A DNA stretch of 17,677 bases, taken from the UHGV virus genome UHGV-0132791, one strand, 5' to 3'. A program made the translations under genes and the position numbers. The stretch's first letter is position 1. Every line of letters starts with the position of its first letter. The notes under the pieces were generated by a model that was not told the origin of the DNA, ran no database searches, and saw nothing but the letters and a program-made list of their open reading frames with translations. The stretch comes from a virus. Below, piece after piece: positions 814-15,572 of the stretch.

Positions 814-892
814 TTGCTGGTTTTTACACTTAATCTTTTGATAATAAAGAATAAGTTTATCTGGTGCTTTCACTGAATTTTCCTCGTTATCT

Positions 893-930
893 GTGTGTTG
901 CAATCATCTCTGTATTGCAGCTTGTATTGC
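893..930 (+). repeat. Cluster of TGT(A/G)TTGCA direct repeats (candidate integrase arm-type sites), left end
   Basis: TGTGTTGCAA (895-904) and TGTATTGCAGCTTGTATTGC (911-930); a near-identical 20-mer (one mismatch) recurs at 11300-11319 near the right end. Confidence 0.5.
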
Positions 931-945
931 TTTTTGGGGCTAAAA

Positions 946-2181
946 ATGGCTGGCGAGAACAAACTGAGCGACAAAGCGCTTAAAGGATATCTGGGGAAAC
1001 CCAGAGAAAAGCAGATCACCATTGCTGATGGAAAGGGGCTTTCTATTCGTGTGAGTACTAAAGGGGCTGTGAGCTTTGTTTTCTTCTACAGGTTAGCAGG
1101 TGGCCGGGCTGCTCCGGTCTGGCTAACGTTGGGTAAATATCCTGATATGTCACTCAAACAGGCAAGGGAAAAGCGCGACGAGTGCCGTGGTTGGTTGGCT
1201 GACAAACGTGATCCGCGTATCCAGATTAAGATTCAGGCTGAAGAACGCTTAAAGCCGGTCACAGTGGAGGATGCACTAAATTACTGGTATGAAAATTACT
1301 GTAAGGTGCGTCGTAAAACTCATGCTGTAACGCTTGGCAGATTTCGAAAGCATATCTTTCCCTATATCGGTCATTTGCCCGTAAATGACACTCACCTATA
1401 TGAATGGCTGGACTGTTTTGACCGAATTAAACGTAATGCACCAGTTATGGCGGCGTATGTTTTTTCTGACACTAAATTAGCTCTTCGTTTTTGTCGGGTA
1501 CGCCAGTACGCGACGTGTGATGCTTTAAAGGATTTGCGCATGAGTGATGTGGGGCAGATTGCAGGTAAGCGGGATCGGGTTCTGGATGAAGCCGAACTCG
1601 GCCAGCTCTGGAAGGCAATTTTTGTCGAGCCTGATTTAAAACTAATGTCTGAATACACGCGAAAAATGTTTGTGCTTTGTACAGTATTTGGATGTCGAAT
1701 GAGTGAAGCCCGATTATCAGAATGGAGCGAATGGGATCTCGAAAGTTGGGTTTGGACTGTACCAAAAGATCACTCAAAAACTGGTGTTGAAATCGTCAGA
1801 CCAGTACCTGAAATTCTACGACAGTGGGTAACGGATGTTCACGAAGAGACAAAACATACTGGTTATGTGCTGGGAAGTCTGCGAATTAGAGAAAGCGTAA
1901 GCAAGATTGGGGGGAAAATCGGTAAACGTTTGGGCCATGAAAAACAATGGTCACTACACGACCTTAGAAGAACGCTATCTACTCATCTAAGTGATCTCGG
2001 TGTTGAATTTTATGTAGTAGAACAACTGTTAGGCCATGCGCTACCTGGCGTGGCAGGTGTTTACAACCGGAGTAAGTTTATGGCTAAAAAACTGGATGCT
2101 CTGGAACTCTGGACTACATATCTCAATAGCATCGCAGGTGCTGATTCAAAAGTGACAATCCTCAAACAAAAGGTTGGTTAA
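946..2181 (+). CDS. int: Tyrosine site-specific integrase, P4-like family
   Basis: ATG at 946 preceded by GGGG; N-terminal arm-binding-type region (…LSDKALKGY…DGKGLSIRVSTKGAVSFVFFYR…WLTLGKYPDMSLKQAR) and C-terminal catalytic motifs (LHDLRRT…LLGHA…GVYNRS). The ORF track starts at a GTG at 895; the ATG at 946 is preferred. Confidence 0.9.
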   Translation: MAGENKLSDKALKGYLGKPREKQITIADGKGLSIRVSTKGAVSFVFFYRLAGGRAAPVWLTLGKYPDMSLKQAREKRDECRGWLADKRDPRIQIKIQAEERLKPVTVEDALNYWYENYCKVRRKTHAVTLGRFRKHIFPYIGHLPVNDTHLYEWLDCFDRIKRNAPVMAAYVFSDTKLALRFCRVRQYATCDALKDLRMSDVGQIAGKRDRVLDEAELGQLWKAIFVEPDLKLMSEYTRKMFVLCTVFGCRMSEARLSEWSEWDLESWVWTVPKDHSKTGVEIVRPVPEILRQWVTDVHEETKHTGYVLGSLRIRESVSKIGGKIGKRLGHEKQWSLHDLRRTLSTHLSDLGVEFYVVEQLLGHALPGVAGVYNRSKFMAKKLDALELWTTYLNSIAGADSKVTILKQKVG

Positions 2182-2410
2182 CATGAAAAAAATGGCAATT
2201 GTTGATAAAAAGGGTCTGGAGTACATTCCTAACATTGACCGAATGATCCGTGAGAAAGAATGTCGGGAGCTAACCACTCTTGCGAACAGCACACGCTGGA
2301 AGCTGGAGAAGGAAGGAAAATTTCCTAAGCGGATCAAGATTGGTTCCACTGCTGTTGCATATCGTCTTTCAGAAGTGCAGGCATGGATTCGAGGTGAGTG
2401 GGTAGTTTAA
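2174..2410 (+). CDS. alpA: AlpA-family HTH protein (putative excisionase / transcriptional activator)
   Basis: Small ORF overlapping the int stop; …LTTLANSTRWKLEKEGKFPKRIKIGSTAVAYRLSEVQAWI is typical of the AlpA/Xis HTH family. ORF-track start is a TTG at 2174; the first ATG is at 2183. Confidence 0.7.
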   Translation: MVNMKKMAIVDKKGLEYIPNIDRMIREKECRELTTLANSTRWKLEKEGKFPKRIKIGSTAVAYRLSEVQAWIRGEWVV

Positions 2411-2435
2411 ATTATCTCAGAATAAAATATTATGA

Positions 2436-2471
2436 ATTACTGATTTGAGAATTTGTACTCAAATCAGTAAT
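2436..2471. terminator. 14-bp perfect inverted repeat between convergent genes (possible bidirectional terminator)
   Basis: ATTACTGATTTGAG (2436-2449) / loop 8 nt / CTCAAATCAGTAAT (2458-2471), between the alpA stop (2410) and the stop of the minus-strand gene (2480). AT-rich stem with no clean T-run, so weak. Confidence 0.35.
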
Positions 2472-2479
2472 AACATTCT

Positions 2480-3016
2480 TTATAAGAGATTAAATCCAAA
2501 TAAAGAGTAATCATATACCGGGGTGCATTGCATCCCACTGAATATGCTGATGTTTTTTTCTGTTTCTATCCTTTTTTCAATAAGTTGTTGTATATTTTTA
2601 CAGTACAATTTGTGTGTGATGTTATTATCGTAAGCCTGATATAGCAACGTCAATGTTGATGCTATGAAACATGCAGAAAGAAAATGAACTAGTACATGTG
2701 AGCGTTTTTTGGTTGTCCATGATGCATTCGCTTGTGAAATATAAATCATTCTGAGAATGATAATGATGATAGACAGTAACAGACCACTCAATAAAATAAG
2801 TATTGGGTTTGCGTATTTAATTAATGGTTGAGAGCAAAAAACTATTATAGCTCCTGTGACTGCGTATGAGAAAAAGGAGTAATTAAACTTCTTACTCCTT
2901 CTCTCAAGTATTTTAATTTCATCTTGTGTGGGGGGTTTAGATGCCTCCAATATAAGTTTATTAAATGTTTCTGTTATCTTGTTTTTTGTGTTTTTGGCTA
3001 TTTTTTTTAGATTCAT
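2480..3016 (-). CDS. Small membrane protein (two predicted hydrophobic helices), function unknown; AT-rich cargo gene
   Basis: 178-aa ORF with hydrophobic stretches (…AVTGAIIVFCSQPLIKYANPILILLSGLLLSIIIIILRMIYI… and …HVLVHFLSACFIASTLTLLYQAY…); visibly lower GC than its neighbours; GGAG-like SD upstream of the ATG (rc of 3014-3016). Confidence 0.6.
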   Translation of the reverse strand: MNLKKIAKNTKNKITETFNKLILEASKPPTQDEIKILERRSKKFNYSFFSYAVTGAIIVFCSQPLIKYANPILILLSGLLLSIIIIILRMIYISQANASWTTKKRSHVLVHFLSACFIASTLTLLYQAYDNNITHKLYCKNIQQLIEKRIETEKNISIFSGMQCTPVYDYSLFGFNLL

Positions 3017-3366
3017 AGCATTCTAACTCCCTTAACTTATTTATTACTTTCTCTTTATGATAAGAGAGGGGAATGACTTGGTAAAGTGATTTGTCATTAA
3101 TAATGATAATCCTTGCGATAAATATTTCTGCAAGTTATTTACCTGTTTGTTGCTATCTTGTTAAGCGTTGGGTGTGGTTTATGTTTGGAGCGACTTTATT
3201 TAATCGTGATTTTATGGATTTATATTTATATCCTGTAAGATAAGCGCATGTTAGTTCAGGAGTAGTGTCAGATAAAATTATTCGGAGTAGAACTACCTTT
3301 TCTGTTTATTGCCAGTATTTACATAGCAATGCGCCGTAGTTACTCACATCACGGCGCTGATACTAA

Positions 3367-3669
3367 TTATTCAGATTCTTTGGCTTTACGCCGCTGGAGT
3401 TCTTCACGAGCGACGGCTACGAGTTGCCCGATTTCCTCCGCTGCCTTGATGCCGATTTGTTCGACCTTAGCTAAGGCATCCAGTGAAGACACGAGGGGAT
3501 TTTCTCCGCTTCCTTCTGCCTGGCGGCGGGCGATCTCACCGCGCATGGCGGTTACTATGAATCCGGCGTTGCTTTCGCCGTCCAGTTTTACGGATTCCAT
3601 GCCCTCCATAACATCGTGGGGAACCCTGATCGTTGTCATTTGCGATTTTGCATTTTTGTATACAGACAT
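3367..3669 (-). CDS. Putative ribbon-helix-helix (Arc/CopG-like) transcriptional regulator; candidate element repressor
   Basis: 100-aa ORF; the N-terminus has an RHH-like pattern (β-strand TTIRVPHDV, helix, G-E-S-N turn, helix AGFIVTAMRGEIARR); transcribed divergently from the main element operon across a repeat-bearing intergenic region. Confidence 0.55.
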   Translation of the reverse strand: MSVYKNAKSQMTTIRVPHDVMEGMESVKLDGESNAGFIVTAMRGEIARRQAEGSGENPLVSSLDALAKVEQIGIKAAEEIGQLVAVAREELQRRKAKESE

Positions 3670-3877
3670 AGTTAATCACCAATTTGTTATGTGTATATCA
3701 CTATACACAAAAGTGAGATATAAAAACACTTGCAATGTATATCACCACAATATAATGTATATCTCATATTATGGTCGCTATGTATCTCACAATGATCGAT
3801 TCATAAAAACGACGAAACCCGGCAGTGCGCGAACACTAACCGGGCTTCTAACCAAACCGTTAAACGAGGTAACGATT
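3670..3877. promoter_or_regulatory. Divergent promoter/operator region with four ATGTATATC(A/T)C-type direct repeats
   Basis: TGTATATCAC at 3692-3701 and 3736-3745, TGTATATCTC at 3756-3765, TGTATCTCAC at 3781-3790; AT-rich; lies between the RHH gene start (3669) and the first gene of the plus-strand operon (3878). Confidence 0.5.
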
Positions 3878-4243
3878 ATGGCTGGAACACAGCATACCCA
3901 AACTCACCCTAAATTTATATACACCTTTCTGGCACTACACCACGACCGCATGGCAGATGGAGCAACTACGGTACATGTTGCCGCTGACACGCTGGTTGAT
4001 GCCCGCAAGATGGTTAAGGAGATGGGCTATACTGCGGCTTTCTGGAAAGGGCGTGAAGAAAACACGCTGTTTATTCAGAAATGCGAAAACAATTTCATCT
4101 GGCGTTTTATCGCCCTGAGCACCGCACAACCACGCGTAATACACATCGAGGCCGCCAGCGAACAGGAAGCCCGCCAACAATCCCCAACTGGCTGCGTGAT
4201 GATATTCGCCGCCCGTATTCGTCAGGAGGTATGCCGTGCTTAA
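3878..4243 (+). CDS. Hypothetical protein (first gene of element early operon)
   Basis: ATG at 3878 with GAGG 9-12 nt upstream. The ORF-track ORF 3329..4243 extends upstream antisense to the RHH gene; that extension is judged spurious. Confidence 0.55.
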   Translation: MAGTQHTQTHPKFIYTFLALHHDRMADGATTVHVAADTLVDARKMVKEMGYTAAFWKGREENTLFIQKCENNFIWRFIALSTAQPRVIHIEAASEQEARQQSPTGCVMIFAARIRQEVCRA

Positions 4244-4421
4244 AACCTTCCGTGTATTTGCTCGTGCGGTTAACCCACTAGGCCACACAATTGGTATCGC
4301 TCAGAACGTGAAGGCTGTTAATGTTCAGACGGCTATTGCTGCGGTGAGAAGCGAATCATCAGAATATGGCTTATCACAAGTCATTATTTCAGCAGTGTAT
4401 GAATTAAAAGAGGTGCATTAA
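4236..4421 (+). CDS. Hypothetical small protein
   Basis: GTG start at 4236 preceded by a strong AGGAGG (4224-4229); overlaps the upstream stop; 61 aa. Confidence 0.45.
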   Translation: MLKTFRVFARAVNPLGHTIGIAQNVKAVNVQTAIAAVRSESSEYGLSQVIISAVYELKEVH

Positions 4422-4612
4422 TGCAGGAAATTACATTACACGAAGCCGCTGAACGTGCGCACCAGACAGAAATTATTTGCCGCCTTCTTGAGGTATACCC
4501 GAACAAAATTACAGATGCTGATATATCCGCACTGGCGAGCCTACTGGCGCGTCTTTCGGGAAGTGTCGCTAGTTTTTTGATTGAGGAAGAAAGTAAGCTG
4601 GTGGGGGATTAA
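4421..4612 (+). CDS. Hypothetical small protein
   Basis: ATG overlapping the upstream stop (TAATG at 4419-4423), AGAGG SD; 63 aa. Confidence 0.5.
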   Translation: MQEITLHEAAERAHQTEIICRLLEVYPNKITDADISALASLLARLSGSVASFLIEEESKLVGD

Positions 4613-4834
4613 ATGAATACAGAACGGGAAGTCTTTTTTAAATTGTTAGCATGTGCAGAAAGTTCATTAACTTTAAATAATTCAGCAAAAGCAATATTAA
4701 ATATGTGGCTTGATTGCATAAATGACAATGAAGATGCAAATATTGCTTATGGCCTGTTGTCACTTATTGATGAAGCAGCAGAAAAACTCAATGACGCAAT
4801 AAATAGTGCCCTGCTATCAAATAAGTCGAGTTAA
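4613..4834 (+). CDS. Hypothetical small protein (AT-rich)
   Basis: ATG immediately after the preceding stop; 73 aa; lower GC than flanking genes. Confidence 0.45.
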   Translation: MNTEREVFFKLLACAESSLTLNNSAKAILNMWLDCINDNEDANIAYGLLSLIDEAAEKLNDAINSALLSNKSS

Positions 4835-4851
4835 GTCGAGGAATAAATAAT

Positions 4852-5151
4852 ATGGAAATGAAAAATTCTGGCTTTATTGCCAGCGGCCCCGCTCGGCCTG
4901 AATTTATGAACGGCGATATTTACCGCGATAAATACGGCGGCACGGTAACGATTAAAGGCGTGGCAGAACGGCGCATTACTTACCGCCGTGAGGGGTATAG
5001 CTATGACTGCGTGATGCCTGTTTATCAGTTCCGGCGTGATTTTTCCCTGGTATATGCCGCACCCCGCAGTAAGCCCATCAGCAGGGAAAAAGCGCGGGGA
5101 AACATCCAGAAAATGAAAAGCATGATTAACGCATTCAGGGGCAAAAAATGA
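4852..5151 (+). CDS. Hypothetical protein
   Basis: 99-aa ORF with GAGG SD; its stop overlaps the pri-rep start (ATGA at 5148-5151). Confidence 0.5.
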   Translation: MEMKNSGFIASGPARPEFMNGDIYRDKYGGTVTIKGVAERRITYRREGYSYDCVMPVYQFRRDFSLVYAAPRSKPISREKARGNIQKMKSMINAFRGKK

Positions 5152-6899
5152 AACTGGCACCGAACTTAAAAAAACAGCCACGCGACAGACTGACAGAGGT
5201 AATCATCTTTGCAGGTAGTGATGCGTGGAGCCATGCGAAAGAGTGGCAGGAATGGGCGGGTAAACATATTGCCGCCGACGATGTGCCGCCTGTCGTGCTG
5301 GCTGATGAGCAACTGAAAAATATCACCGATTACCGGATCATTGATGAAGATCGTCAGTGTGTGCGTGTTTACCGCGCAGGACATATCACAGAGCACAGCA
5401 TGACGCAGATTGTTACGTTATTGGCTGTGGCTGGAGTGAAGACCGTACACGAATACGCGGGGATTACTGACACCAGCCCCGTGGATTTATCCGACCAGTT
5501 GCCGCGACTCAAAGAGGAATGCGAGCGTGGGGAAAGTCTGGTGCTTAATCTTCCGACGAAGCAAAAGGCGCAACTTTCACAGATGGCAGACAGTGAACGT
5601 GCACAACTACTTGCCGATCGCTTTGATGGTGTGTGTGTTCATGCAGAAAGTGAAATCGTCCACGTATGGCGCGGCGGGGTATGGTGTCCGGTCAGCACAA
5701 TGGAGCTGAGCCGCGAAATGGTGGCGATCTATTCAGAGCACAGGGCCACATTCAGCAAGCGTGCAATTAATAACGCCGTGGAGGCGTTAAAAGTTATTGC
5801 CGACCCCATGGGGGAGCCGTCCGGTGATTTGCTACCGTTCGCCAATGGTGTGCTTGACCTGAAAACGGGGGAATTTTCCCCGCACTCGCCGGAGAACTGG
5901 ATCACCACGCACAACGGCATTGAGTACACGCCACCAGCACCAGGGGAGAACATCCGCGACAACGCGCCAAACTTTCATAAATGGCTTGATCACGCAGCCG
6001 GAAAAGACCCGCGCAAGATGATGCGTATATGTGCCGCGCTGTACATGATTATGGCGAACCGGTACGACTGGCAGATGTTTATTGAGGCCACCGGAGAGGG
6101 CGGTAGCGGTAAAAGTACATTCACACACATAGCCAGCCTTCTGGCAGGGAAACAGAACACGGTAAGCGCTGAAATGACATCGCTTGATGATGCTGGTGGA
6201 CGTGCGCAGGTTGTCGGGAGTCGTCTTATCGTCCTGGCTGACCAGCCGAAATATACAGGCGAAGGCACGGGCATCAAGAAAATCACGGGCGGCGACCCCG
6301 TGGAAATAAACCCGAAATATGAAAAGCGTTTTACGGCGGTAATCAGGGCGGTGGTGCTGGCTACCAACAATAACCCGATGATATTCACCGAACGGGCCGG
6401 AGGTGTGTCACGTCGTCGCGTAATTTTCCGCTTCGACAATATCGTTAGCGAGGCAGAAAAGGACAAGGATTTACCGGAGAAGGTCGCGGCTGAAATCCCC
6501 GTGATTATCCGCAGATTGCTGGCAAACTTTGCTGATCCAGAAAAGGCGCGACATTTGTTGATTGAACAGCGCGACGGTGAAGAAGCACTGGCGATAAAGC
6601 AACAGACGGATCCGGTTATTGAGTTTTGCCAGTTTCTGAATTTTCTGGAGGAAGCGCGCGGCCTGATGATGGGTGGCGGTGGCGATTCCGTGAAGTACAC
6701 GACCAGAAACAGCCTTTACCGCGTCTATCTGGCGTTTATGGCATACGCAGGCAGAAGCAAGCCGCTAAACGTGGCTGATTTCAGCAAGGCCATGAAGCCA
6801 GCGGCGAAAGTTTACGGATGTGAATATATAACGCGCAGGGTTAAAGGACTTACGCAAACCAATGTGACAACAACAGAGGATTGCGACGCGTTTTTATAA
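5148..6899 (+). CDS. Replication initiator, primase-helicase type (P4 alpha C-terminal / PICI Pri-Rep-like SF3 ATPase)
   Basis: 583 aa; Walker A GEGGSGKST (6093-6119), Walker B-like LIVLAD; overall pattern of the phage/plasmid primase P4-family C-terminal domain; followed directly by an iteron array. Confidence 0.85.
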   Translation: MKLAPNLKKQPRDRLTEVIIFAGSDAWSHAKEWQEWAGKHIAADDVPPVVLADEQLKNITDYRIIDEDRQCVRVYRAGHITEHSMTQIVTLLAVAGVKTVHEYAGITDTSPVDLSDQLPRLKEECERGESLVLNLPTKQKAQLSQMADSERAQLLADRFDGVCVHAESEIVHVWRGGVWCPVSTMELSREMVAIYSEHRATFSKRAINNAVEALKVIADPMGEPSGDLLPFANGVLDLKTGEFSPHSPENWITTHNGIEYTPPAPGENIRDNAPNFHKWLDHAAGKDPRKMMRICAALYMIMANRYDWQMFIEATGEGGSGKSTFTHIASLLAGKQNTVSAEMTSLDDAGGRAQVVGSRLIVLADQPKYTGEGTGIKKITGGDPVEINPKYEKRFTAVIRAVVLATNNNPMIFTERAGGVSRRRVIFRFDNIVSEAEKDKDLPEKVAAEIPVIIRRLLANFADPEKARHLLIEQRDGEEALAIKQQTDPVIEFCQFLNFLEEARGLMMGGGGDSVKYTTRNSLYRVYLAFMAYAGRSKPLNVADFSKAMKPAAKVYGCEYITRRVKGLTQTNVTTTEDCDAFL

Positions 6900-6904
6900 T
6901 TTTA

Positions 6905-7145
6905 GACAAAAGCCCTCTACCTCCTCTACCTAAAGAAAATAAATATATATTATTCAATATGATAAGAAGGTAGAGGGTCAGGTAGAAGGCAAATAAAAGC
7001 CCTCTACCTCCTCCACCATGATTAAGGTCATTTGTGAGGGGCGGGTAGAGGATGGGTAGAGGGCCCCGAAAGCCCTCTACCCATCTGAAAGCCGCGCCAT
7101 TACTGACCTGAAAGATGATTAGGTAGAGAGGTAGAGGAGGTGCAC
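6905..7145. repeat. Iteron array / putative element replication origin
   Basis: About 11 copies of CCTCTACC / GGTAGAGG in both orientations (e.g. 6913-6930, 6969-6989, 6999-7017, 7043-7063, 7073-7082, 7122-7140), including the inverted pair GGGTAGAGGGC…GCCCTCTACCC (7054-7082), flanking an AT-rich stretch (6931-6968); immediately 3' of the replication gene. Confidence 0.7.
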
Positions 7146-7185
7146 CACATTTCAAAACTTTTTAAACGAGGGGGTAAAAATAAAA

Positions 7186-7443
7186 ATGCACACATCAGGA
7201 AAACTGAACAAACATATAAAGCCACATTACCGCGCCCTTGATATGGCTGAACATTGGCTAAGGGTGGCGATTAAGGCAATAGATCGCAACGCCGGGGAAG
7301 GATACGCGAAAGCACATCCCGAACTGATAAGCGCATTCATGACAACGGCGGCTGCAAACTTTGCCACGCTGACCGAACGGGAGATTGCCGAAGCGGAGGA
7401 AGTGACAACCATCAATATTAAGTCCGGAGAGCAGGCAGCTTGA
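7186..7443 (+). CDS. Hypothetical protein
   Basis: 85-aa ORF, ATG at 7186 preceded by GAGGGGG; stop overlaps the start of the next gene. Confidence 0.5.
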   Translation: MHTSGKLNKHIKPHYRALDMAEHWLRVAIKAIDRNAGEGYAKAHPELISAFMTTAAANFATLTEREIAEAEEVTTINIKSGEQAA

Positions 7444-7850
7444 CGGCGCAAATAGCAGCTTACGGGCGGCTGGTGGACGACCCACAGGTAAAACATACCA
7501 GCAAGGGAGCACCCATGACACTGGCACGGATGACGGTATCTTTGCCATGCAGCCAGGCAGATGACGGAACGGCGACGATGTGGTTATCTGTCCTGGCGTT
7601 TGGCAGACAAGCCGACGCGCTGGCAAAGCATCACAAAGGCGAACTCCTGAGCGTGGCGGGTAATATGCAGGTGAGCCAGTGGAGCGGACAGAACGGTGAA
7701 ACGCGGCAGCGCTGGCAGGTTATCGCAGACAGCGTAATCAGTGCGCGAACGGTGCGACCTGGCGGGAACAGACGTAAAACCACAGGCACACAGGGCAACA
7801 CACCACCAGCGGGAGGGGATGATCTCTACGGTGACAATATTCCATTCTGA
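7440..7850 (+). CDS. ssb: Single-stranded DNA-binding protein (SSB-like, OB fold)
   Basis: Pattern resembling E. coli SSB (…GRLVDDPQV…, …WLSVLAFGRQADALAKHHKGELLSVAGNMQVSQWSGQNGETRQRWQVIAD…) and a C-terminal tip …DNIPF like the SSB DDDIPF tail. Start is a TTG at 7440 overlapping the upstream stop; exact start uncertain. Confidence 0.7.
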   Translation: MTAQIAAYGRLVDDPQVKHTSKGAPMTLARMTVSLPCSQADDGTATMWLSVLAFGRQADALAKHHKGELLSVAGNMQVSQWSGQNGETRQRWQVIADSVISARTVRPGGNRRKTTGTQGNTPPAGGDDLYGDNIPF

Positions 7851-7858
7851 ACGCACAG

Positions 7859-7878
7859 GCCGGAGAAATCCGGCTTTT
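7859..7878 (+). terminator. Rho-independent terminator downstream of ssb
   Basis: GCCGGA (7859-7864) / GAAA / TCCGGC (7869-7874) followed by TTTT (7875-7878). Confidence 0.6.
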
Positions 7879-8114
7879 ATCAGTTGAGTCCGTCACACCA
7901 CGCAAAAAAAAGGCCGGAATATTCCGACCCTTTCATCACCAAAGAGAATAATTTATGTCTTTGAACTTGTAACGCTGTACAGAATGACACGTAACGCCGG
8001 ATAAATAAACGAAGATTGAAACTTTGCACAATATTGCATAGCAATGCATAAAGATGCCGATCAAGGCAGATGATAAAATTAATACGACACTTTTACTAAG
8101 TATTAAGAGGTTAT

Positions 8115-9155
8115 ATGAGTGATTTATATTCGCCAGCGGAGTTAATACAGACTGTTAATGCTGAAGATATTCAATGGCAGATTAACTCTTTATTTATAAA
8201 CCTGTTTTTTAAGCGAGTCGTTACATTTGAGACGCGGGATATTGCGCTTGATATTATTGACGATCCAGACATCCCGATGGCTGCATTTTGTTCCCCTATG
8301 GTTGGTAGTAAAGTATCACGCGATGAAGGCTACGAATCAAAAGTAATTCGCCCTGGCTACATGAAGCCAAAAAGTAGTATAGACCCAAATAAAATAGCCG
8401 TTCGTCAACCAGGCGTATCACCGGAACAATTCAATGCATATTCATCACGCAATTTCAAAATAAAGCGAGCGATGGTAAGACAAGCGCAGGCCATTCGCGC
8501 ACGTATTGAATGGCTTGCTGTTCAGGCAATCACAACGGGGAAAAATATCATTGAGGGCGATGGCATTGAACGTTATGAACTGGACTGGAATATAAAACCA
8601 CAAAATATTATCACGCAGTCCGGCGGCACGGAGTGGAGCGGTAGAGATTTATCAACATTTGATCCAAATGATGACATCGAAGAGTACGCAGAAATCAGCG
8701 AAGGGACTACAAATATCATCGTAATGGGACGCAACGTATGGAAAAAATACCGCGCCTTTAAAGCAGTAAAAGATTGCCTTGATACTCGACGGGGATCTAA
8801 TTCCGTTCTTGAAACGGCCCTGAAAAATCTTGGGGATTCCGTCAGTTTTAAGGGTTACGTAGGCGATGTGGCTATTGTTGTGTATAGCGGACGTTATACC
8901 GACGAGGACGGAACAGAAAAATATTTCCTTGATCCTGATTTGATGGTTCTTGGCAATACATCACTTCAGGGCATCGTTGCATACGGTGGCATTCAGGATC
9001 CGGAGCTAATCCGAATGGGGCTGACTAAAGCCGAACTCGCACCGAAAAACTACATTGTGCCTGGAGATCCGGCTATTGAGTACGTACAAACGCACTCTGC
9101 ACCACAGCCAATACCGGCCCGCATCAATCGTTTTGTTACCGTTCGCATTGGTTAA
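8115..9155 (+). CDS. Element-encoded major capsid protein, lambda gpE paralogue
   Basis: 346 aa; clearly homologous but divergent from gpE (shared blocks PGYMKPK, ITQSGGTEWS.RD.ST.DP.DDIEEYA, KAVKD.LDTRRGSNS.LETA.K.LG..VS.KGY.GDVAIVVYSG.Y, MVLGNT); strong SD AAGAGG. Confidence 0.9.
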   Translation: MSDLYSPAELIQTVNAEDIQWQINSLFINLFFKRVVTFETRDIALDIIDDPDIPMAAFCSPMVGSKVSRDEGYESKVIRPGYMKPKSSIDPNKIAVRQPGVSPEQFNAYSSRNFKIKRAMVRQAQAIRARIEWLAVQAITTGKNIIEGDGIERYELDWNIKPQNIITQSGGTEWSGRDLSTFDPNDDIEEYAEISEGTTNIIVMGRNVWKKYRAFKAVKDCLDTRRGSNSVLETALKNLGDSVSFKGYVGDVAIVVYSGRYTDEDGTEKYFLDPDLMVLGNTSLQGIVAYGGIQDPELIRMGLTKAELAPKNYIVPGDPAIEYVQTHSAPQPIPARINRFVTVRIG

Positions 9156-9164
9156 GGGGGAGCA

Positions 9165-9506
9165 ATGGCTACTCATTACACTGAACTCATGGCTGGCACT
9201 GAAGCACTGGTTACTACGTTGGGGATATTTTCAGCTAATAAAGGGGTAATTCCTGCATTTACGCCACTGATGCAAGAAGATGCAACTGGTGCACTGGTGG
9301 TATGGGATGGAACGAGCGCAGGCAAAGCTGTTTATGTTTCCGCTGTACAAATCGATACAGCGACAAAAACGCAGGCTCAGGTTTATAAAACCGGCGTCTT
9401 AAATGTTGATGCTCTGAACTGGCCTGAGTCTGTAACACAACTATCAGCAAAAGTTGCTGCGTTTGTTGGCTCAGGTATTTCTGTTCAGCCGCTGGCACGT
9501 GTGTGA
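9165..9506 (+). CDS. Element-encoded head decoration protein, lambda gpD paralogue
   Basis: 113 aa; gpD-like blocks (TPLM…LVVWDGT…YKTG…WPE…) and length; immediately downstream of the capsid paralogue, with SD AAGGGGGAG. Confidence 0.8.
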   Translation: MATHYTELMAGTEALVTTLGIFSANKGVIPAFTPLMQEDATGALVVWDGTSAGKAVYVSAVQIDTATKTQAQVYKTGVLNVDALNWPESVTQLSAKVAAFVGSGISVQPLARV

Positions 9507-9515
9507 GGTACGAGA

Positions 9516-9860
9516 ATGATTGAAAGAGATAGTCAGCTACGAGAGCTATTAGATATCGATGACAAAATGCGCTTAAGCGAGCGTCTTGTCGATATGAATC
9601 AGGTGATGGAACTTACAACCCTGAGTCGCCGTACACTGCTAAACCTTGAGGCTCGTGGAGAGTTCCCTGAGCGTGTGCAGGTTACGGAAGGGCGTAAGGC
9701 TTGGTATTTAAGCGAGGTTGTTGAGTGGATTAACAATATCCCGCGAGCATCAAACTATTGCCTCGTACCCACACCGGAAAAACCTGATGCGGCGTTATGC
9801 CTCAAGATTGAACGCGCCAGGCGTAATGCCCTGAAAGGGCGCAATAAGTTGATTGGTTGA
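9516..9860 (+). CDS. Second AlpA-family HTH regulator
   Basis: 114 aa; …MNQVMELTTLSRRTLLNLEARGEFPERVQVTEGRKAWYLSEVVEWI… is AlpA/HTH_17-like; located between the decoration gene and the cos site. Confidence 0.7.
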   Translation: MIERDSQLRELLDIDDKMRLSERLVDMNQVMELTTLSRRTLLNLEARGEFPERVQVTEGRKAWYLSEVVEWINNIPRASNYCLVPTPEKPDAALCLKIERARRNALKGRNKLIG

Positions 9861-9868
9861 TGAAATTA

Positions 9869-9895
9869 GGGCCCGCTCTGGCTGGCGGGTCCTTT
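9869..9895 (+). terminator. GC-rich hairpin plus short T run after second AlpA-like gene
   Basis: GGGCCCGC (9869-9876) / 8-nt loop / GCGGGTCC (9885-9892) with one G·U pair, followed by TTT. Confidence 0.35.
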
Positions 9896-9913
9896 CCGGC
9901 AATCCGGCAGACT

Positions 9914-9950
9914 ACGGGGCGGAAGGCGCGCGGGTTTTCGCTATTTATGA
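9914..9950. other. cos-like site (cosN region) of the element
   Basis: ACGGGGCGGAAGGCGCGCGGGTTTTCGCTATTTATGA: flanks match the lambda cos left-end sequence as I recall it (…ACGGGGCGGCGACCTCGCGGGTTTTCGCTATTTATGA…), but the central hexamer differs (AAGGCG vs CGACCT); lies about 150 bp upstream of the Nu1-like TerS, as in lambda. Confidence 0.6.
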
Positions 9951-10076
9951 GCATTTTTAGGGGACTGGTGGTGGTTTTGTTGTTCGCTATATCTGTATGA
10001 ATAATAAGAGAAAAACACAATCAACACACCAACCTGAAACAGTAATTAAGTTGTGGTATCAATGAAATTGCACCTG

Positions 10077-10604
10077 ATGAACAAAAAAAACATGGCAAAA
10101 AGTTGCCGTGTAAGCGCCACTGCGTTCGATAAGTGGGGAGTGATTCCCGTCGAGCGTAAGGGCCGCGAGGCGTTTTATGATGTCGCCAGTGTAATAGATA
10201 ATCGGGTTAACAATGCAATCAGCCAGATTACAAACGAAACGGGCGAGATTGATGATGATGAACTCCTACGAGTCAGGATCAGATTGCTGACAGCACAGGC
10301 AGAGGCGCAGGAGCTTAAAAACGAGCGCGAACGCGGCGACGTTATTGATACAGCGTTTTGTATATACGTGCTTTCAAAACTGGCGAGTCAGATTTCTTCA
10401 ATCATGGACAGCCTGCCGCTTGCCATGACAAGGAAGTTTCCCGACATGAAGCCGTCTATGCTGGATGGACTGAAAAAAGAAGTTATCAGAGCCTGTAACG
10501 CATGCGCAAAACTTGACGAAAACATACCGCTGATGCTGTCCGATTATCTGATGGAAACTGCCGGAAACGTACCGGATAAGTTGCAGCTGAATAAAGATAA
10601 GTAA
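10077..10604 (+). CDS. Terminase small subunit, lambda Nu1-like
   Basis: Homology to lambda Nu1 (MNKKNMAKS…YDVASVID…LLTAQAEAQELKNERERGDVIDTAFCIYVLSKLASQISSIMDSLPLAMTRKFPDMK vs Nu1 …LTRAQADAQELKNARDSAEVVETAFCTFVLSRIAGEIASILDGLPLSVQRRFPELE). ORF track begins at a GTG at 10053; ATG 10077 is chosen by alignment with the Nu1 N-terminus. Confidence 0.85.
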   Translation: MNKKNMAKSCRVSATAFDKWGVIPVERKGREAFYDVASVIDNRVNNAISQITNETGEIDDDELLRVRIRLLTAQAEAQELKNERERGDVIDTAFCIYVLSKLASQISSIMDSLPLAMTRKFPDMKPSMLDGLKKEVIRACNACAKLDENIPLMLSDYLMETAGNVPDKLQLNKDK

Positions 10605-10615
10605 CGTAGTACGCT

Positions 10616-10897
10616 ATGACTGAATCCGAAATACTGCGATTAATCCGCCGTGCTTGTGGAATCAGCAAGCAGCATGACGAACAGGCCACGCAGCCGGACA
10701 GCGTGATCGCCGAAAATTACGCGCGTGTTGTTGCTGATGTGATGCGCCGTGATGGTATTGAGCTTAACGGCGTGGATATGCGCGACATACGGATCAGATT
10801 CCTTGAGTTGCTGGCATACCGTCGCCGTTCTCAACAACGAAGGGAGAGCGCGAAAAACACTTATCAGTGGAAGAAGCCGGAACGGTTGCGGCGGTAG
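10616..10897 (+). CDS. Hypothetical basic protein downstream of TerS
   Basis: 93-aa ORF, ATG at 10616 twelve nt after the TerS stop; no recognisable similarity to terminase large subunit. Confidence 0.45.
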   Translation: MTESEILRLIRRACGISKQHDEQATQPDSVIAENYARVVADVMRRDGIELNGVDMRDIRIRFLELLAYRRRSQQRRESAKNTYQWKKPERLRR

Positions 10898-11235
10898 ATT
10901 CCTGATATTCAGGAAAACCACGAATCCGGGGGTTTACTGGCGCGGTTACGGCGGTGACACACACCGAGGCAGAACAATTACCGTAGGTTAAAGCGACAGT
11001 ATTCACACCAAAGGCAGAAATTAGCTGTTAACGTAACTGACTGATATTTTCGGGAACAGCCAACGGCTGAGGCCGGAGCTATAAAAATAGCTTTGGGTAC
11101 AGTCCTCAGTTTTGAGGGATGTTAACCAACTGAATAATAAGCAAACCTCAAAATTGAGTTTTGTATCTGCCTGAGTTATTTCTGTGCTAACTTGCTGATA
11201 TTCCCGATAACGCAAAATTGCGTTGGCTGGTGGGT

Positions 11236-11255
11236 GAGTTGCAGATCTGCAACTC
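11236..11255. repeat. 20-bp perfect palindrome GAGTTGCAGATCTGCAACTC near right end of element
   Basis: Exact dyad symmetry over 20 bp, about 140 bp inside the right att core; contains the TTGCA motif shared with the arm-type repeats. Confidence 0.6.
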
Positions 11256-11299
11256 GGCTATGAAACTTAATAATCGAACAGCATGTAAATTCATTTCTG

Positions 11300-11320
11300 T
11301 GTATTGCAGCATGTATTGCA
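11300..11320 (+). repeat. TGTATTGCAGCATGTATTGCA direct repeats (candidate arm-type sites), right end
   Basis: Matches 911-930 (TGTATTGCAGCTTGTATTGC) with one mismatch, in the same orientation, about 77 bp inside the right core. Confidence 0.5.
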
Positions 11321-11396
11321 ACATAGTCATTCTGGTAGAGATTATGCTCTATTTTTCCTCTTATATCATTCACATACTTACGTCATTGACTCATGT

Positions 11397-11406
11397 AACC
11401 CAAGCA
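11397..11406 (+). repeat. Right copy of 10-bp att core / target duplication (AACCCAAGCA)
   Basis: Identical to 773-782; preceded by an in-frame TAA (11396-11398) that ends the element-side frame. Confidence 0.75.
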
Positions 11407-12187
11407 TGAGGTGAATCCGCAGATGACCCTGCGTCGCCTGCCGGATGAAGATCCGCAGAACCTGGCTGACCCGGCTTACCGTCGTCGCCGTATTATTCGG
11501 CAGAATATGCTGGATGAAAATCTGGCGATTGCCCAGGTCGAAGAGATGCAGGCAGTTTCTGCCGTGCTTAAGGGCAAATATACCATGACCGGTGAAGCCT
11601 TCGATCCGGTTGAGGTGGATATGGGCCGCAGTGAGGCGAATAACATCACGCAGTCCGGCGGCACGGAGTGGAGCAAGCGTGACAAGTCCACGTATGACCC
11701 GACCGACGATATCGAAGCCTACGCGCTGAACGCCAGCGGTGTGGTGAATATCATCGTGTTCGATCCGAAAGGCTGGGCGCTGTTCCGTTCCTTCAAAGCC
11801 GTCAAGGAGAAGCTGGATACCCGTCGCGGCTCTCATTCCGAGCTGGAGACAGCGGTAAAAGACCTGGGCAAAGCGGTGTCCTATAAGGGAATGTATGGCG
11901 ATGTGGCCATCGTCGTGTATTCCGGACAGTACGTGGAAAACGGCGTCAAAAAGAACTTCCTGCCGGACAACACGATGGTGCTGGGGAACACTCAGGCTCG
12001 CGGTCTGCGCACCTATGGCTGCATTCAGGATGCGGACGCACAGCGCGAAGGCATTAACGCCTCTGCCCGTTACCCGAAAAACTGGGTGACCACCGGCGAT
12101 CCGGCGCGTGAGTTCACCATGATTCAGTCAGCACCGCTGATGCTGCTGGCTGATCCTGATGAGTTCGTGTCCGTACAACTGGCGTAA
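11399..12187 (+). pseudogene. E: Major capsid protein gpE, 3' fragment (codons ~80-341), separated from its 5' part by the insertion
   Basis: Translation PKHEVNPQMTLRRLPDEDPQNLADPAYRRRRII…DEFVSVQLA* matches the lambda gpE C-terminal 260 residues almost exactly; there is no start codon or RBS of its own at the homology boundary (the ORF track starts at an internal GTG at 11411). Confidence 0.9.
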
Positions 12188-12227: not shown

Positions 12228-12623
12228 ATGACGAAAGATGAACTGATTGCCCGTCTCCGCTCGCTGGGTGAACAACTGAACCGTGATGTCAGCCTGACGG
12301 GGACGAAAGAAGAACTGGCGCTCCGTGTGGCAGAGCTGGAAGAGGAGCTTGATGACACGGATGACGCTGCCGGTCAGGACACATCTGTCAGCCCGGAAAA
12401 TGCGCTGACCGGACATGAAAATGAGGTGGTATCAGCGCAGCCGGATACCGTGACTGATACGGCTGATCTGGTCACGGTTGTGGCACTGGTGACGCTGCAT
12501 ACTGATGCACTTCACGCCACGCGGGATGAACCTGTGGCATTTGTGCTGCCGGGAACGGCGTTCCGTGTCTCTGCCGGTGTGGCAGCTGAAATGACAGAGC
12601 GCGGCCTGGCCAGAATGCAATAA
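12228..12623 (+). CDS. FI: DNA packaging protein FI
   Basis: MTKDELIARLRSLGEQLNRDVSLTGTKEELALRVAEL… …AFRVSAGVAAEMTERGLARMQ matches lambda gpFI (some substitutions mid-protein); ATG at 12228 with GGAGGAG SD. The ORF track starts upstream at 12159. Confidence 0.9.
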   Translation: MTKDELIARLRSLGEQLNRDVSLTGTKEELALRVAELEEELDDTDDAAGQDTSVSPENALTGHENEVVSAQPDTVTDTADLVTVVALVTLHTDALHATRDEPVAFVLPGTAFRVSAGVAAEMTERGLARMQ

Positions 12624-12634
12624 CGGGAGGCGCT

Positions 12635-12988
12635 GTGGCTGATTTCGATAACCTGTTCGATGCTGCCATTGCCCGCGCCGATGAAACGATACGCGGGTAC
12701 ATGGGAACGTCAGCCACCATGACATCCGGTGAGCAGTCCGGCGCAGTAATACGTGGTGTTTTTGATGACCCTGAAAATATCAGCTATGCCGGACAGGGCG
12801 TGCGCGTTGAAGGCTCCAGCCCGTCCCTGTTTGTCCGGACTGATGATGTGCGGCAGCTGCGGCGCGGCGACACGCTGACCATCGGTGAGGAAAACTTCTG
12901 GATAGACCGGATTTCGCCGGATGATGGCGGAAGCTGTCATCTCTGGCTTGGGCGGGGCGTACCGCCTGCCGTTAACCGTCGCCGCTGA
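12635..12988 (+). CDS. FII: Head-tail joining protein FII
   Basis: (GTG)ADFDNLFDAAIARADETIRGYMGTSAT…LWLGRGVPPAVNRRR matches lambda gpFII. Confidence 0.9.
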   Translation: MADFDNLFDAAIARADETIRGYMGTSATMTSGEQSGAVIRGVFDDPENISYAGQGVRVEGSSPSLFVRTDDVRQLRRGDTLTIGEENFWIDRISPDDGGSCHLWLGRGVPPAVNRRR

Positions 12989-12999
12989 AAGGGGGATGT

Positions 13000-13578
13000 A
13001 TGGCCATAAAAGGTCTTGAGCAGGCCGTTGAAAACCTCAGCCGTATCAGCAGAACGGCGGTGCCCGGTGCCGCCGCAATGGCCATTAACCGCGTTGCTTC
13101 ATCCGCGATATCGCAGTCGGCGTCACAGGTTGCTCGTGAGACAAAGGTACGCCGGAAACTGGTAAAGGAAAGGGCCAGGCTGAAAAGGGCCACGGTCAAA
13201 AATCCGCAGGCCAGAATCAAGGTTAACCGGGGGGATTTGCCCGTAATCAGGCTGGGTAACGCGCGGGTTGTCCTGTCCCGACGCAGGCGTCGTAAAAAGG
13301 GGCAGCGTTCATCCCTGAAAGGTGGCGACAGCGTGCTTGTGGTGGGAAACCGTCGTATTCCCGGCGCGTTTATTCAGCAACTGAAAAATGGCCGCTGGCA
13401 TGTCATGCAGCGTGTGGCCGGGAAAAACCGTTACCCCATTGATGTGGTGAAAATCCCGATGGCGGTGCCGCTGACCACGGCGTTTAAACAGAATATTGAA
13501 CGGATACGGCGTGAACGTCTTCCGAAAGAGCTGGGCTATGAGCTGCAGCATCAACTGAGAATGGTAATAAAGCGATGA
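13000..13578 (+). CDS. Z: Tail assembly/completion protein Z
   Basis: MAIKGLEQAVENLSRIS…[16 protein letters not shown] matches lambda gpZ; stop overlaps the U start. Confidence 0.9.
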   Translation: MAIKGLEQAVENLSRISRTAVPGAAAMAINRVASSAISQSASQVARETKVRRKLVKERARLKRATVKNPQARIKVNRGDLPVIRLGNARVVLSRRRRRKKGQRSSLKGGDSVLVVGNRRIPGAFIQQLKNGRWHVMQRVAGKNRYPIDVVKIPMAVPLTTAFKQNIERIRRERLPKELGYELQHQLRMVIKR

Positions 13579-13970
13579 AACATACTGAACTCCGTGCAGC
13601 CGTACTGGATGCACTGGAAAAACATGACACCGGGGCGACGCTTTTTGATGGTCGCCCCGCTGTTTTTGATGAGGAGGATTTTCCGGCAGTTGCCGTTTAT
13701 CTCACCGGCGCTGAATACACGGGCGAAGAGCTGGACAGCGATACCTGGCAGGCGGAGCTGCATATTGAAGTTTTCCTGCCTGCTCAGGTGCCGGATTCAG
13801 AGCTGGATTCGTGGATGGAGTCCCGGATTTATCCGGTGATGAGCGATGTCCCGGCACTGTCAGATTTGATCACCAGTATGGTGGCCAGTGGCTATGACTA
13901 CCGGCGCGACGATGATGCGGGCCTGTGGAGTTCAGCCGATCTGACTTATGTCATTACCTATGAAATGTGA
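13575..13970 (+). CDS. U: Tail terminator protein U
   Basis: [33 protein letters not shown]… matches lambda gpU. Confidence 0.9.
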
Positions 13971-13977
13971 GGACGAT

Positions 13978-14718
13978 ATGCCTGTACCAAATCCAGTAAT
14001 GCCGGTGAAAGGGGCCGGGACCACCCTGTGGGTTTATAAGGGGAACGGTGACCCTTATGCGAACCCGCTTTCAGACGTTGACTGGTCGCGTCTGGCTAAA
14101 GTTAAAGACCTGACGCCCGGCGAACTGACCGCTGAGTCCTATGACGACAGCTATCTCGATGATGAAGATGCGGACTGGACTGCGACCGGGCAGGGGCAGA
14201 AATCTGCCGGAGATACCAGCTTCACGCTGGCGTGGATGCCCGGAGAGCAGGGGCAGCAGGCGCTGCTGGCGTGGTTTAATGAAGGGGATACCCGTGCCTA
14301 TAAAATCCGCTTCCCGAACGGCACGGTCGATGTGTTCCGCGGCTGGGTCAGCAGTATCGGTAAGGCGGTGACGGCGAAGGAAGTGATCACCCGCACGGTG
14401 AAAGTCACCAACGTGGGACGTCCGTCGATGGCAGAAGATCGCAGCACGGTGACGGCGACAACCGGCATGACGGTGACACCCGCCAGTGCTTCCGTAGTGA
14501 AAGGGCAGAGCACTACGCTGACCGTGGCATTCCAGCCGGAGGGCGCAACCGACAAGAGCTTCCGTGCGGTGTCTGCGGATAAAACAAAAGCCACCGTGTC
14601 GGTCAGCGGTATGACCATCACCGTGAACGGCGTTGCTGCAGGCAAGGTCAACATTCCGGTTGTATCCGGTAATGGTGAGTTTGCTGCGGTTGCAGAAATC
14701 ACCGTCACCGCCAGTTAA
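13978..14718 (+). CDS. V: Major tail protein V
   Basis: [22 protein letters not shown]…[15 protein letters not shown] matches lambda gpV including the C-terminal Ig-like region. ORF track starts 30 nt upstream (13948); ATG 13978 preferred. Confidence 0.9.
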
Positions 14719-14733
14719 TCCGGAGAGTCAGCG

Positions 14734-15156
14734 ATGTTCCTGAAAACCGAATCATTTGAATATAACGGCGTGACCGTCACGCTTTCTGAACTGTCAGCCC
14801 TGCAGCGTATTGAGCATCTTGCCCTGATGAAACGGCAGGCAGAACCGGCGGGATCCGACAGCAACCGGCAGGTTACTGTGGAAGACGTCATCAGAACCGG
14901 CGCGTTTCTGGTGGCGATGTCCCTGTGGCATAACCATCCGAAGAAGACGCAGATGCCGTCCATGAATGAAGCCGTTAAACAGATTGAGCAGGAAGTGCTT
15001 ACCACCTGGCCCACAGAGGCAATTTCTCATGCTGAAAACGTGGTGTACCGGCTGTCCGGTATGTATGAGTTTGTGGTGAATAATGCCCCCGAACAGGCAG
15101 AGGACGCCGGGCCTGCAGAGCCTGTTTCTGCGGGAAAGTGTTCGACGGTGAGCTGA
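14734..15156 (+). CDS. G: Tail assembly chaperone G
   Basis: MFLKTESFE.NGVTVTLSELSALQRIEHLALMKRQAE… matches lambda gpG; ends at TGA 15154-15156. Confidence 0.9.
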   Translation: MFLKTESFEYNGVTVTLSELSALQRIEHLALMKRQAEPAGSDSNRQVTVEDVIRTGAFLVAMSLWHNHPKKTQMPSMNEAVKQIEQEVLTTWPTEAISHAENVVYRLSGMYEFVVNNAPEQAEDAGPAEPVSAGKCSTVS

Positions 15157-15572
15157 GTTTTGCCCTGAAACTGGCGCGTGAGATGGGGCGACCCGACTGG
15201 CGCGCCATGCTTGCCGGGATGTCATCCACGGAGTATGCCGACTGGCACCGCTTTTACAGTACCCATTATTTTCATGATGTTCTGCTGGATATGCACTTTT
15301 CCGGGCTGACGTACACCGTGCTCAGCCTGTTTTTCAGCGATCCGGATATGCATCCGCTGGATTTCAGTCTGCTGAACCGGTGTGAGGCTGACGAAGAGCC
15401 TGAAGGTGATGTGCTGATGCAGAAAGCGGCAGGGCTTGCCGGAGGTGTTCGTTTTGGTCCGGACGGGAATGAAGTTATCCCCGCCTCCCCGGATGTGGCG
15501 GACATGACGGAGGATGACGTAATGCTGATGACAGTATCAGAAGGGATCGCAGGAGGAGTCCGGTATGGCTGA
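14734..15572 (+). CDS. Tail assembly protein G-T fusion produced by programmed -1 ribosomal frameshift
   Basis: Slippery heptamer G GGA AAG at 15132-15138 near the 3' end of G; the -1 frame continues as …GKVFDGELSFALKLAREMGRPDWRAMLAG… to TGA 15570-15572, matching the lambda gpG-T arrangement. Confidence 0.8.
15132..15138 (+). other. -1 programmed frameshift slippery site (GGGAAAG)
   Basis: X XXY YYZ heptamer positioned as in lambda G/T; zero-frame codons GGA AAG. Confidence 0.8.

Follow-up and report, generated by a model that had tools for sequence, protein, structure and literature searches.

A known type of helper-embedded PICI in a lambda-type capsid gene, with the satellite's own capsid copy probably a non-target through old divergence

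The window analysed here is a stretch of 17,677 nucleotides of the virus genome UHGV-0132791, in which the lambda-type late genes D, E, FI, FII, Z, U, V, G and T flank a long insert. At its left end lies a helper prophage head-decoration gene, the cognate of lambda D (positions 150-482, plus strand; PHROG head decoration, E=1e-29). It is followed by the 5' fragment of the helper capsid gene, a gene of the lambda E type (538-782, plus strand), whose translation is broken after ...PGYVKPKH; the open reading frame that starts at 538 extends to 813 via nine satellite-derived codons (LAWLSEAFV). The E frame resumes at a second copy of the junction core as ...KPKHEVNPQ..., and the 3' part of the gene (11407-12187, plus strand), recognized by its translation and by reconstitution of the gene, runs from the third base of the His82 codon through ...EVNPQ... 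to the stop at 12187. Joined to each other, the translations of the two parts make up an intact E protein of 341 amino acids. The helper late genes FI, FII, Z, U, V, G and T come after E (12228-15572, plus strand), as identified by PHROG and Pfam matches and by gene calls in the metagenome scaffold L269.

Each junction carries a copy of the 10-bp identity block AACCCAAGCA, with the attL copy at 773-782 and the attR copy at 11397-11406, both on the plus strand. These exact repeats are the only two occurrences of the block in the window. The pair of 10-mers is not significant on its own, since 77 of 200 shuffled sequences reach two matches at one mismatch or fewer; we count the repeat as significant because deleting 783-11406 in silico, which removes the insert and one copy of the core, gives back an intact 341-codon E. 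Eleven viral contigs hold an uninterrupted E gene whose product is 100% identical to the restored protein. The longer helper sequence ccgggttatgtcaaacccaagca occurs once, at 760-782, where shuffles expect no match. Together with the restoration of E upon deletion, it confirms that helper E encodes PGYVKPKH at the insertion point, as an earlier preliminary description of this DNA had read it.

The insert (783-11396, plus strand, co-oriented with E) is a helper-embedded PICI satellite of 10,614 bp, as judged from its gene content, its match to L269 and its relative 11capE. Its genes fall into an integration zone (int, AlpA), a replication zone (DUF4222, primase, SSB) and a late zone (E, D, Nu1). 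The integration zone begins with a P4-type tyrosine integrase of 411 amino acids containing Arm-DNA-bind_3 and Phage_integrase domains (946-2181, plus strand; Pfam). Adjoining int is a gene for a small AlpA-family HTH protein, a likely excisionase (2183-2410, plus strand; Pfam Phage_AlpA, E=2.8e-15), and after this first AlpA gene a hairpin at 2436-2471 forms a terminator-like site. The variable zone (2480-4834) contains a low-GC (about 0.33) open reading frame of 178 amino acids on the minus strand (2480-3016), which is also found in E. coli NRG 857C and for which we found no significant Pfam, PHROG or PADLOC match. The same zone encodes an Icd-like small protein of a repressor PHROG (3878-4243, plus strand), with corresponding gene calls in L269 and NRG 857C. 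A 304-aa open reading frame at 3329-4243 is probably over-called, with its PHROG matches confined to residues 251-303. The zone shows no Bro-domain match in Pfam or PHROG; moreover, an Rfam scan of the window returned no family at gathering score, and hence no C4/isrK immunity RNAs there or elsewhere in the window. PADLOC models gave no matches on six cargo or unknown open reading frames.

In the replication zone, a DUF4222 protein (4852-5151, plus strand; Pfam, E=9e-24) precedes a D5_N/DUF5906 primase-helicase (5148-6899, plus strand; Pfam; PHROG DNA primase, E=3e-163). Repeats of AAAGCCCTCTACC spaced 87 and 73 bp apart (6908-7081, plus strand) are putative origin iterons, based on their position downstream of pri; the repeat region differs in length from that of L269. 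A single-strand DNA-binding protein is encoded at 7440-7850 (plus strand; Pfam SSB, E=1.4e-14). The late zone holds the satellite's own E-family major capsid gene (8115-9155, plus strand; 346 amino acids; Pfam Phage_cap_E, E=3e-42), in which the PGYMKPKS codons, homologous to the helper att site, read cctggctacatgaagccaaaaagt (8352-8375, plus strand). The satellite's own D-family head-decoration gene (9165-9506, plus strand; Pfam HDPD, E=2.6e-16) and a second AlpA-family regulator (9516-9860, plus strand; Pfam Phage_AlpA; PHROG excisionase/regulator) come next, and the late-zone cargo includes a Nu1-type small terminase subunit (10053-10604, plus strand; PHROG, E=8e-52; Pfam Phage_Nu1). Searches with Pfam and PHROG found no portal, protease, large terminase, head-tail connector or tail genes in the insert, and its gene content suggests that the satellite depends on a helper for packaging and transfer.

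The int, alpA and pri genes all lie on the plus strand, as does E, and we detected no plus-strand terminator between the E 5' fragment and int. This arrangement is in keeping with a model in which late transcription of the helper continues into the satellite, as proposed in PMC10111431. The insert is 99.8% identical to L269, an independent assembly, and the exact protein encoded by the window's own capsid gene is indexed in 213 blocks of an assembly collection.

Helper-embedded PICIs (HE-PICIs) have been described by Tommasini, Mageeney & Williams (2023; PMC10111431), whose site group E:Phage_cap_E:80 (E:80) comprises 201 instances of the occupied site. Their element 11capE excises precisely after induction to yield attB and attP products, as detected by qPCR and deep sequencing, and virions could not be recovered (PMC10111431). 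HE-PICIs of the group are organized in four zones in the order Integration, Bro, Replication and Late; the first, third and fourth are clear in the window's insert, and its variable zone, as noted above, gave no Bro-domain match. The same study defines a motif present in two co-oriented copies, one 81 +/- 2 bp upstream and the other 132 +/- 2 bp downstream of the attP centre. In the window, the doubled motif tgTGTATTGCantgTGTATTGCa, a doubling of TGTATTGC, has exactly two co-oriented copies, and these stand at the published distances: tgTGTATTGCagcaTGTATTGCa in the P arm (11298-11320, plus strand) is 81.5 bp upstream of the attP centre, and tcTGTATTGCagctTGTATTGCt in the P' arm (909-931, plus strand) is 131.5 bp downstream. 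With the integrases of further E:80 elements, some of them from Cedecea and Kosakonia, that of the window shares 83-93% identity, and by amino acid identity it is predicted to fall within the HE-PICI clade. Fig. 1A of PMC10111431 already sets the att site against lambda E and the satellite's own capsid homologue, and the authors infer that the difference in the latter "would likely prevent self-integration." Both the arrangement and the point that the satellite does not target its own copy have been in print since 2023, and the finding as first stated for this window is already known.

The insertion site lies in a highly constrained part of the capsid protein. In a set of 84 distinct full-length homologues of E (66-100% identity), no other 8-residue stretch of the protein is as conserved as PGYVKPKH, whose mean column conservation is 0.99 and whose P, G, K, P, K and H are invariant; the proposed placement of the att site within a conserved capsid motif is therefore well founded. 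Residues P75, G76, Y77, K79, P80 and K81 do not vary even when helper-type capsids are compared with those of the satellite type, despite an identity of only about 43% between the two. The attL junction is present in 173 of 5426 complete E. coli genomes, and the E:80 site is also occupied in Cedecea and Kosakonia.

We compared the satellite's own capsid gene with helper E, to which it is 43.7% identical in amino acids and 50.5% identical in nucleotides. As the preliminary description had noted, the own paralogue encodes PGYMKPKS at 8352-8375 and lacks the core, which it matches at five of ten positions. The same description took the gene to be diverged at this site, and here the data say otherwise: the gene-wide mean is 5.08 matches, so that the divergence at the site equals the average of the gene and is not special, and windows of 23 and 31 nt around the site likewise show average divergence. 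The motif reads PGYMKPKSSID in 46 of 47 satellite-type capsids, with the wobble positions free, and some sibling satellites match a helper core at eight of ten positions (for example AGCCCAAGAG versus AGCCCAAGCA). What is constant in the own copy is the replacement of CAY (His) by AGY (Ser), together with a difference in the right flank. Within the E:80 group, no satellite's own capsid gene contains a sequence resembling the target, which upholds the view that the own copy is not a target.

A scan of genome contigs with the own capsid protein as query gave four loci only, which we used as controls and which are too few for statistics. Two of them, in Kluyvera (L184) and Superficieibacter (L185), are satellites adjoining a tRNA(CAT) gene beside mug-rpoD-dnaG. 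Their capsids share 79-80% identity with that of the window's satellite and have the same PGYMKPKSSID motif. The Kluyvera satellite carries a tyrosine integrase (Pfam); within 10 kb of either locus we found no relative of the window's integrase, and neither locus showed the doubled motif or a split E gene. Because PGYMKPKSSID is also present in these tRNA-adjacent satellites, the non-target state is a lineage trait of the satellite capsid family.

Overall, we propose that the P4-type tyrosine integrase recombined the satellite attP with the K-P-K-H codons of E, and that precise excision would restore E, as is known experimentally for the near-identical 11capE (PMC10111431). The satellite's own paralogue would escape targeting mainly through Ser (AGY) in place of the helper His (CAY), along with its differing flanks. 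As the Ser trait is common to satellites that do not target E, its most economical reading is as a by-product of old divergence, with no dedicated adaptation for self-avoidance. We consider it very probable that the window is a lambdoid late region whose E gene is interrupted by a published HE-PICI of the E:Phage_cap_E:80 group, and probable that the non-target state of the satellite's own copy is such a by-product.

Self-avoidance could instead be an evolved adaptation, with selection keeping the satellite's capsid gene free of a usable attB; the element would be split or inverted if attP recombined with a pseudo-attB inside it. Consistent with this idea, the His codon is absent in all of the approximately 44 E:80 satellites sampled, and the sole His-bearing satellite-type capsid belongs to an element located at another late-gene site. 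That counter-example, however, stands alone and comes from a capsid lineage that has diverged (55% identity). At the six conserved PGY-KPK residues, none of the six codons is common to both paralogues, against a background of 0.40 (p about 0.05). Moreover, some satellites, but not others, match the helper exactly over a 30-nt patch elsewhere in the own capsid gene. This patch indicates that sequence exchange between the paralogues occurs, including from helper to satellite, so that conversion of the site would be possible yet is not seen, and the lasting absence of a target could reflect selection. The codon, His and patch evidence thus hints weakly at selection. Against it stand the Ser residue and PGYMKPKSSID motif of the tRNA(CAT)-locus satellites, which have an unrelated integrase, and the agreement of the site's divergence with the gene-wide average. 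We regard a selected self-avoidance as unlikely.

A more literal model would make the exact sequence AACCCAAGCA the recognition sequence, kept by protein constraint, with its absence alone protecting the own copy. In its favour, AACCCAAGCA is an exact repeat in the window, in 11capE and in many siblings, and the K-P-K-H codons fix seven of the ten core positions. The variation of the core in nature speaks against it. Among the matches listed, the exact core is found at 28 of 120 viral-contig sites that encode the identical peptide; the other cores at these 120 listed sites are AGCCGAAGCA (29), AGCCGAAACA (29), AACCGAAGCA (13) and others for the remainder. In the 80 closest intact E genes (at least 96% amino acid identity), 32 have AACCCAAGCA and 46 have AGCCGAAGCA. 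The E-gene samples are redundant, and their counts apply among the matches listed; read in this way, only 23-40% of the E genes encoding PGYVKPKH carry the exact 10-mer. Within the same 80 genes, the core ranks in the 92nd percentile of nucleotide diversity among the 10-mers of E. The 10-mer whose conservation across helper E genes the preliminary description had inferred is thus poorly conserved (28 of 120 listed sites and 32 of 80 E genes), the outcome which that description had itself named as counting against its inference.

Occupied sites vary in the same manner. At least eight different sequences are present at the core position of occupied attR junctions, and besides AACCCAAGCA the occupied variants include AGCCGAAGCA, AACCGAAGCA, AGCCAAAGCA, AGCCCAAGCA, AGCCAAAACA, AACCTAAGCA and AGCCTAAACA. 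We assembled 23 composites with both junctions (15, plus L186, L187, five siblings and the window). The attL core equals the attR core in 16 of these, using four different sequences, and the two cores are unequal in the other seven. Four of those seven are mismatched at positions 2 and 5, two at position 8 and the last at positions 8 and 9. Core positions 2, 5 and 8 are the wobble positions of Lys-Pro-Lys and vary freely at both empty and occupied sites, while position 9, the first base of the His codon, is unequal only in a Cedecea pair. The constant part of the core, A-CC-AA-CA, is what the protein sequence fixes. In addition, an element of the same kind has inserted off-target in the chromosomal gene rspA (L268), where the chromosomal sequence matches four of ten core positions and junction homology is at most 1 bp. 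The unequal attL and attR cores, combined with an off-target insertion that has almost no core identity, imply tolerance of mismatches in or next to the overlap. An overlap at about block positions 2-8 would be compatible with both the hybrid and the rspA junctions, and heteroduplex segregation makes its placement ambiguous.

Taken together, these sequence comparisons suggest that the exact 10-mer is neither what is conserved nor what is required, and that the conserved entity is the peptide; the literal model is accordingly very improbable. The preliminary idea that the integrase targets a sequence under protein-level constraint in many helpers stands as to constraint and breadth, given the occupancy in E. 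coli, Cedecea and Kosakonia, and fails as to the exact 10-mer as the thing conserved. That account is thus partly supported, right in outline and wrong on the exact 10-mer and on the divergence of the own copy. The entries for the E:80 group in the supplement of PMC10111431 include the identity blocks 'aacccaagca', 'agccgaagca' and 'aagca'; the refinement concerning core variants is in this sense already within the published data, though the text of the paper does not discuss it. Finally, although a short direct repeat bounds the insertion, we reject a transposon target-site duplication or an assembly artefact as having next to no chance of being correct, given the lack of any transposase domain, the presence of a tyrosine integrase, AlpA and arm-type motifs at fixed spacing, the use of one fixed site in hundreds of independent genomes of several genera, the precise excision of 11capE with attB and attP products (PMC10111431), and the 99.8% identical copy in an independent assembly.

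Core variation may also have left a trace in intact E genes. We compared 85 distinct E genes, all intact and each with one or the other main allele (AACCC or AGCCG), a modest sample whose members are not independent. In these genes, E nucleotides 237 and 240 (the Lys79 and Pro80 wobble positions) show perfect linkage to one another, and neither exceeds an r2 of 0.19 with any other common polymorphism. With sites 10-17 nt away, their r2 is 0.01-0.12, against a background median of 0.63-0.75. By nearest-neighbour discordance, they take the top two places among 105 common sites, with values of 0.31 and 0.28 compared to a median of 0.047 and a maximum of 0.24 among the other sites. Some E genes are unequal at nucleotides 237 and 240 only, including one pair that is identical at all other 1,016 positions. 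The maximum r2 to a neighbour falls in the 13th percentile for the core site and is not extreme, and the argument for a footprint rests on the nearest-neighbour discordance and on the near-identical gene pairs.

The discordance at nucleotides 237 and 240 and the hybrid attL/attR pairs suggest that an overlap patch is swapped between attP and attB. We tentatively propose that satellite integration and excision repeatedly exchange a very short crossover patch between attP and helper E, leaving a synonymous footprint at the Lys79 and Pro80 wobble positions; we would put the chances of this proposal somewhat short of even. The idea is not discussed in PMC10111431. If true, it would mean that the integrase tolerates heterology in the overlap region, and that past occupancy is written in the core allele of an empty E gene.

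Helper-embedded satellites represent an unusual, cis-acting form of phage parasitism, in which the helper capsid gene is held hostage until excision. To this picture our analysis adds a quantitative correction, that the peptide and not the 10-mer is conserved, and the observation that the own copy is not specially diverged at the att site. It also adds a testable hint of synonymous scars in helper capsid genes, the only point that is possibly new, which would bear on how strictly the HE-PICI integrase family needs its crossover sequences to be identical.

Heterology between crossover sequences is tolerated by IntDOT of CTnDOT and by the Int protein of Tn916. A similar mismatch tolerance is implied here by natural junctions only, and for an integrase of another lineage (P4-type, with Arm-DNA-bind_3). 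Among satellites, the window's element resembles other Gram-negative PICIs, such as EcCICFT073 and the tRNA-Ile2 and fis PICIs, in its size (approximately 10-11 kb), its unidirectional genes and its combination of int, AlpA and primase; Gram-negative PICIs also often carry an own capsid gene of the window's satellite lineage. The EcCICFT073-type, tRNA-Ile2 and fis elements differ in that they sit in chromosomal genes or beside tRNA genes, use other integrases, and lack the doubled TGTATTGC motif that the window has. Like cf-PICIs, the window's satellite has genes of its own for a major capsid protein, a decoration protein and a small terminase. Unlike them, it has only these E-like, D-like and Nu1-like genes and no portal, prohead protease or head-tail connector genes, so that its capsid could not be built without a helper.

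The closest described system is Eco567.11capE, located in prophage 50icd of E. coli NRG 857C. The two elements have the same integration site, their attL junctions are 100% identical over 130 nt, and their integrases are 99.5% identical in amino acids. Both have the doubled motif at equal spacing, and the window's junction also agrees with the published attL alignment (PMC10111431). They also have a common gene order of int, AlpA, variable zone, DUF4222, primase, SSB, own E, own D and AlpA. Identity between the two is about 98% across the left 4 kb and in the helper flanks, whereas the window's primase region has no megablast match in 11capE and the own capsid and decoration genes are just 83.7% identical in nucleotides. 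The late-zone cargo differs as well, comprising a Nu1-type small terminase and a 93-aa open reading frame in the window, and a HEPN and DUF262 pair in 11capE. Judged by this pattern of identity, the window's satellite is a sibling genotype or mosaic relative of 11capE rather than 11capE itself.

In helper E, the capsid gene of the surrounding lambda-like prophage, the 10-bp att core at the K-P-K-H codons includes two wobble positions, E nt 237 and 240 (window positions 774 and 777). Across 100 distinct uninterrupted E genes (loci L001-L267), these positions carry two linked alleles, AACCC and AGCCG, that are unlinked to polymorphisms only 10 nt away. Moreover, among 105 common sites, nt 237 and 240 rank as the top two in phylogenetic discordance. 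Satellite excision may have left this pattern as a footprint.

We also compared the satellite's own capsid gene with helper E. Although the pair shows an overall identity of only 50%, the two genes share an identical 30-nt run, ATCACGCAGTCCGGCGGCACGGAGTGGAGC, encoding ITQSGGTEWS (window 8610-8639 in the satellite gene and 11645-11674 in the helper gene). Among 20 sampled satellite copies that encode ITQSGGTEWS, ten carry the helper version and ten a diverged version, ATCACTCAGTCTGGCGGTACTGAGTGGTCA. This pattern suggests a gene-conversion patch.

Integration leaves parts of E on both sides of the satellite. Upstream, it yields a predicted 91-aa ORF (window 538-813) that joins E residues 1-82 to nine residues from the satellite, LAWLSEAFV; in sibling loci, this truncated-E fusion is annotated by gene callers. 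Downstream of attR, the ORF that remains after interruption of E at the E:80 site corresponds exactly to protein cluster P0100 (254 aa, N-terminus MTLRRLPDED...). The cluster holds 2,046 member sequences, an indirect indication that public assemblies very commonly contain occupied E:80 sites.

Satellites of this kind are also found at other sites. In L268 (NCBI GCA_052627445.1, DBKFRI010000003.1), one whose capsid protein is identical to that of the window's satellite sits within chromosomal rspA, outside any prophage, with junctions at 2766-2776 and 14100-14110. The junctions show no more than 1 bp of homology, the attL side retains the full AGCCGAAGCA, and the flanks, once joined, match intact rspA at 100%. 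The rspA site is uninterrupted in 5077 of 5426 E. coli genomes. At locus L105 (reverse complement, 3598-4617, 7185-7207 and ~7284), an element of the helper-embedded type that carries the doubled arm-type motif sits at another late-gene site, with an uninterrupted helper D-E pair downstream of it. Its predicted attR core is GCCATGTATG, and its capsid gene alone among the satellite-type copies sampled encodes PGYMKPKH.

Directly downstream of the primase gene, AAAGCCCTCTACC occurs three times (window 6908-7081, spacings of 87 and 73 bp), and these repeats are likely the replication origin. The sole length difference between the window and L269, a 99.8% identical metagenome scaffold, falls at these repeats. 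A 14-bp-stem hairpin (2436-2471) lies between the int operon and a low-GC (~0.33) 178-aa ORF on the minus strand (2480-3016), convergent with int/AlpA. This ORF gave no significant match in Pfam, PHROG and PADLOC searches; its counterpart is kept as a hypothetical protein in the published near relative Eco567.11capE (PMC10111431).

Among sibling elements, the segment directly preceding attR is a cargo hot spot (window 9900-11300; L183 26009-27983; L268 13180-13941; L270 12230-13546). It encodes a Nu1-like small terminase and a 93-aa ORF in the window, Abi_C in L268 and L271-L273, an AF_1680-family gene in L270, and HEPN and DUF262 in Eco567.11capE.
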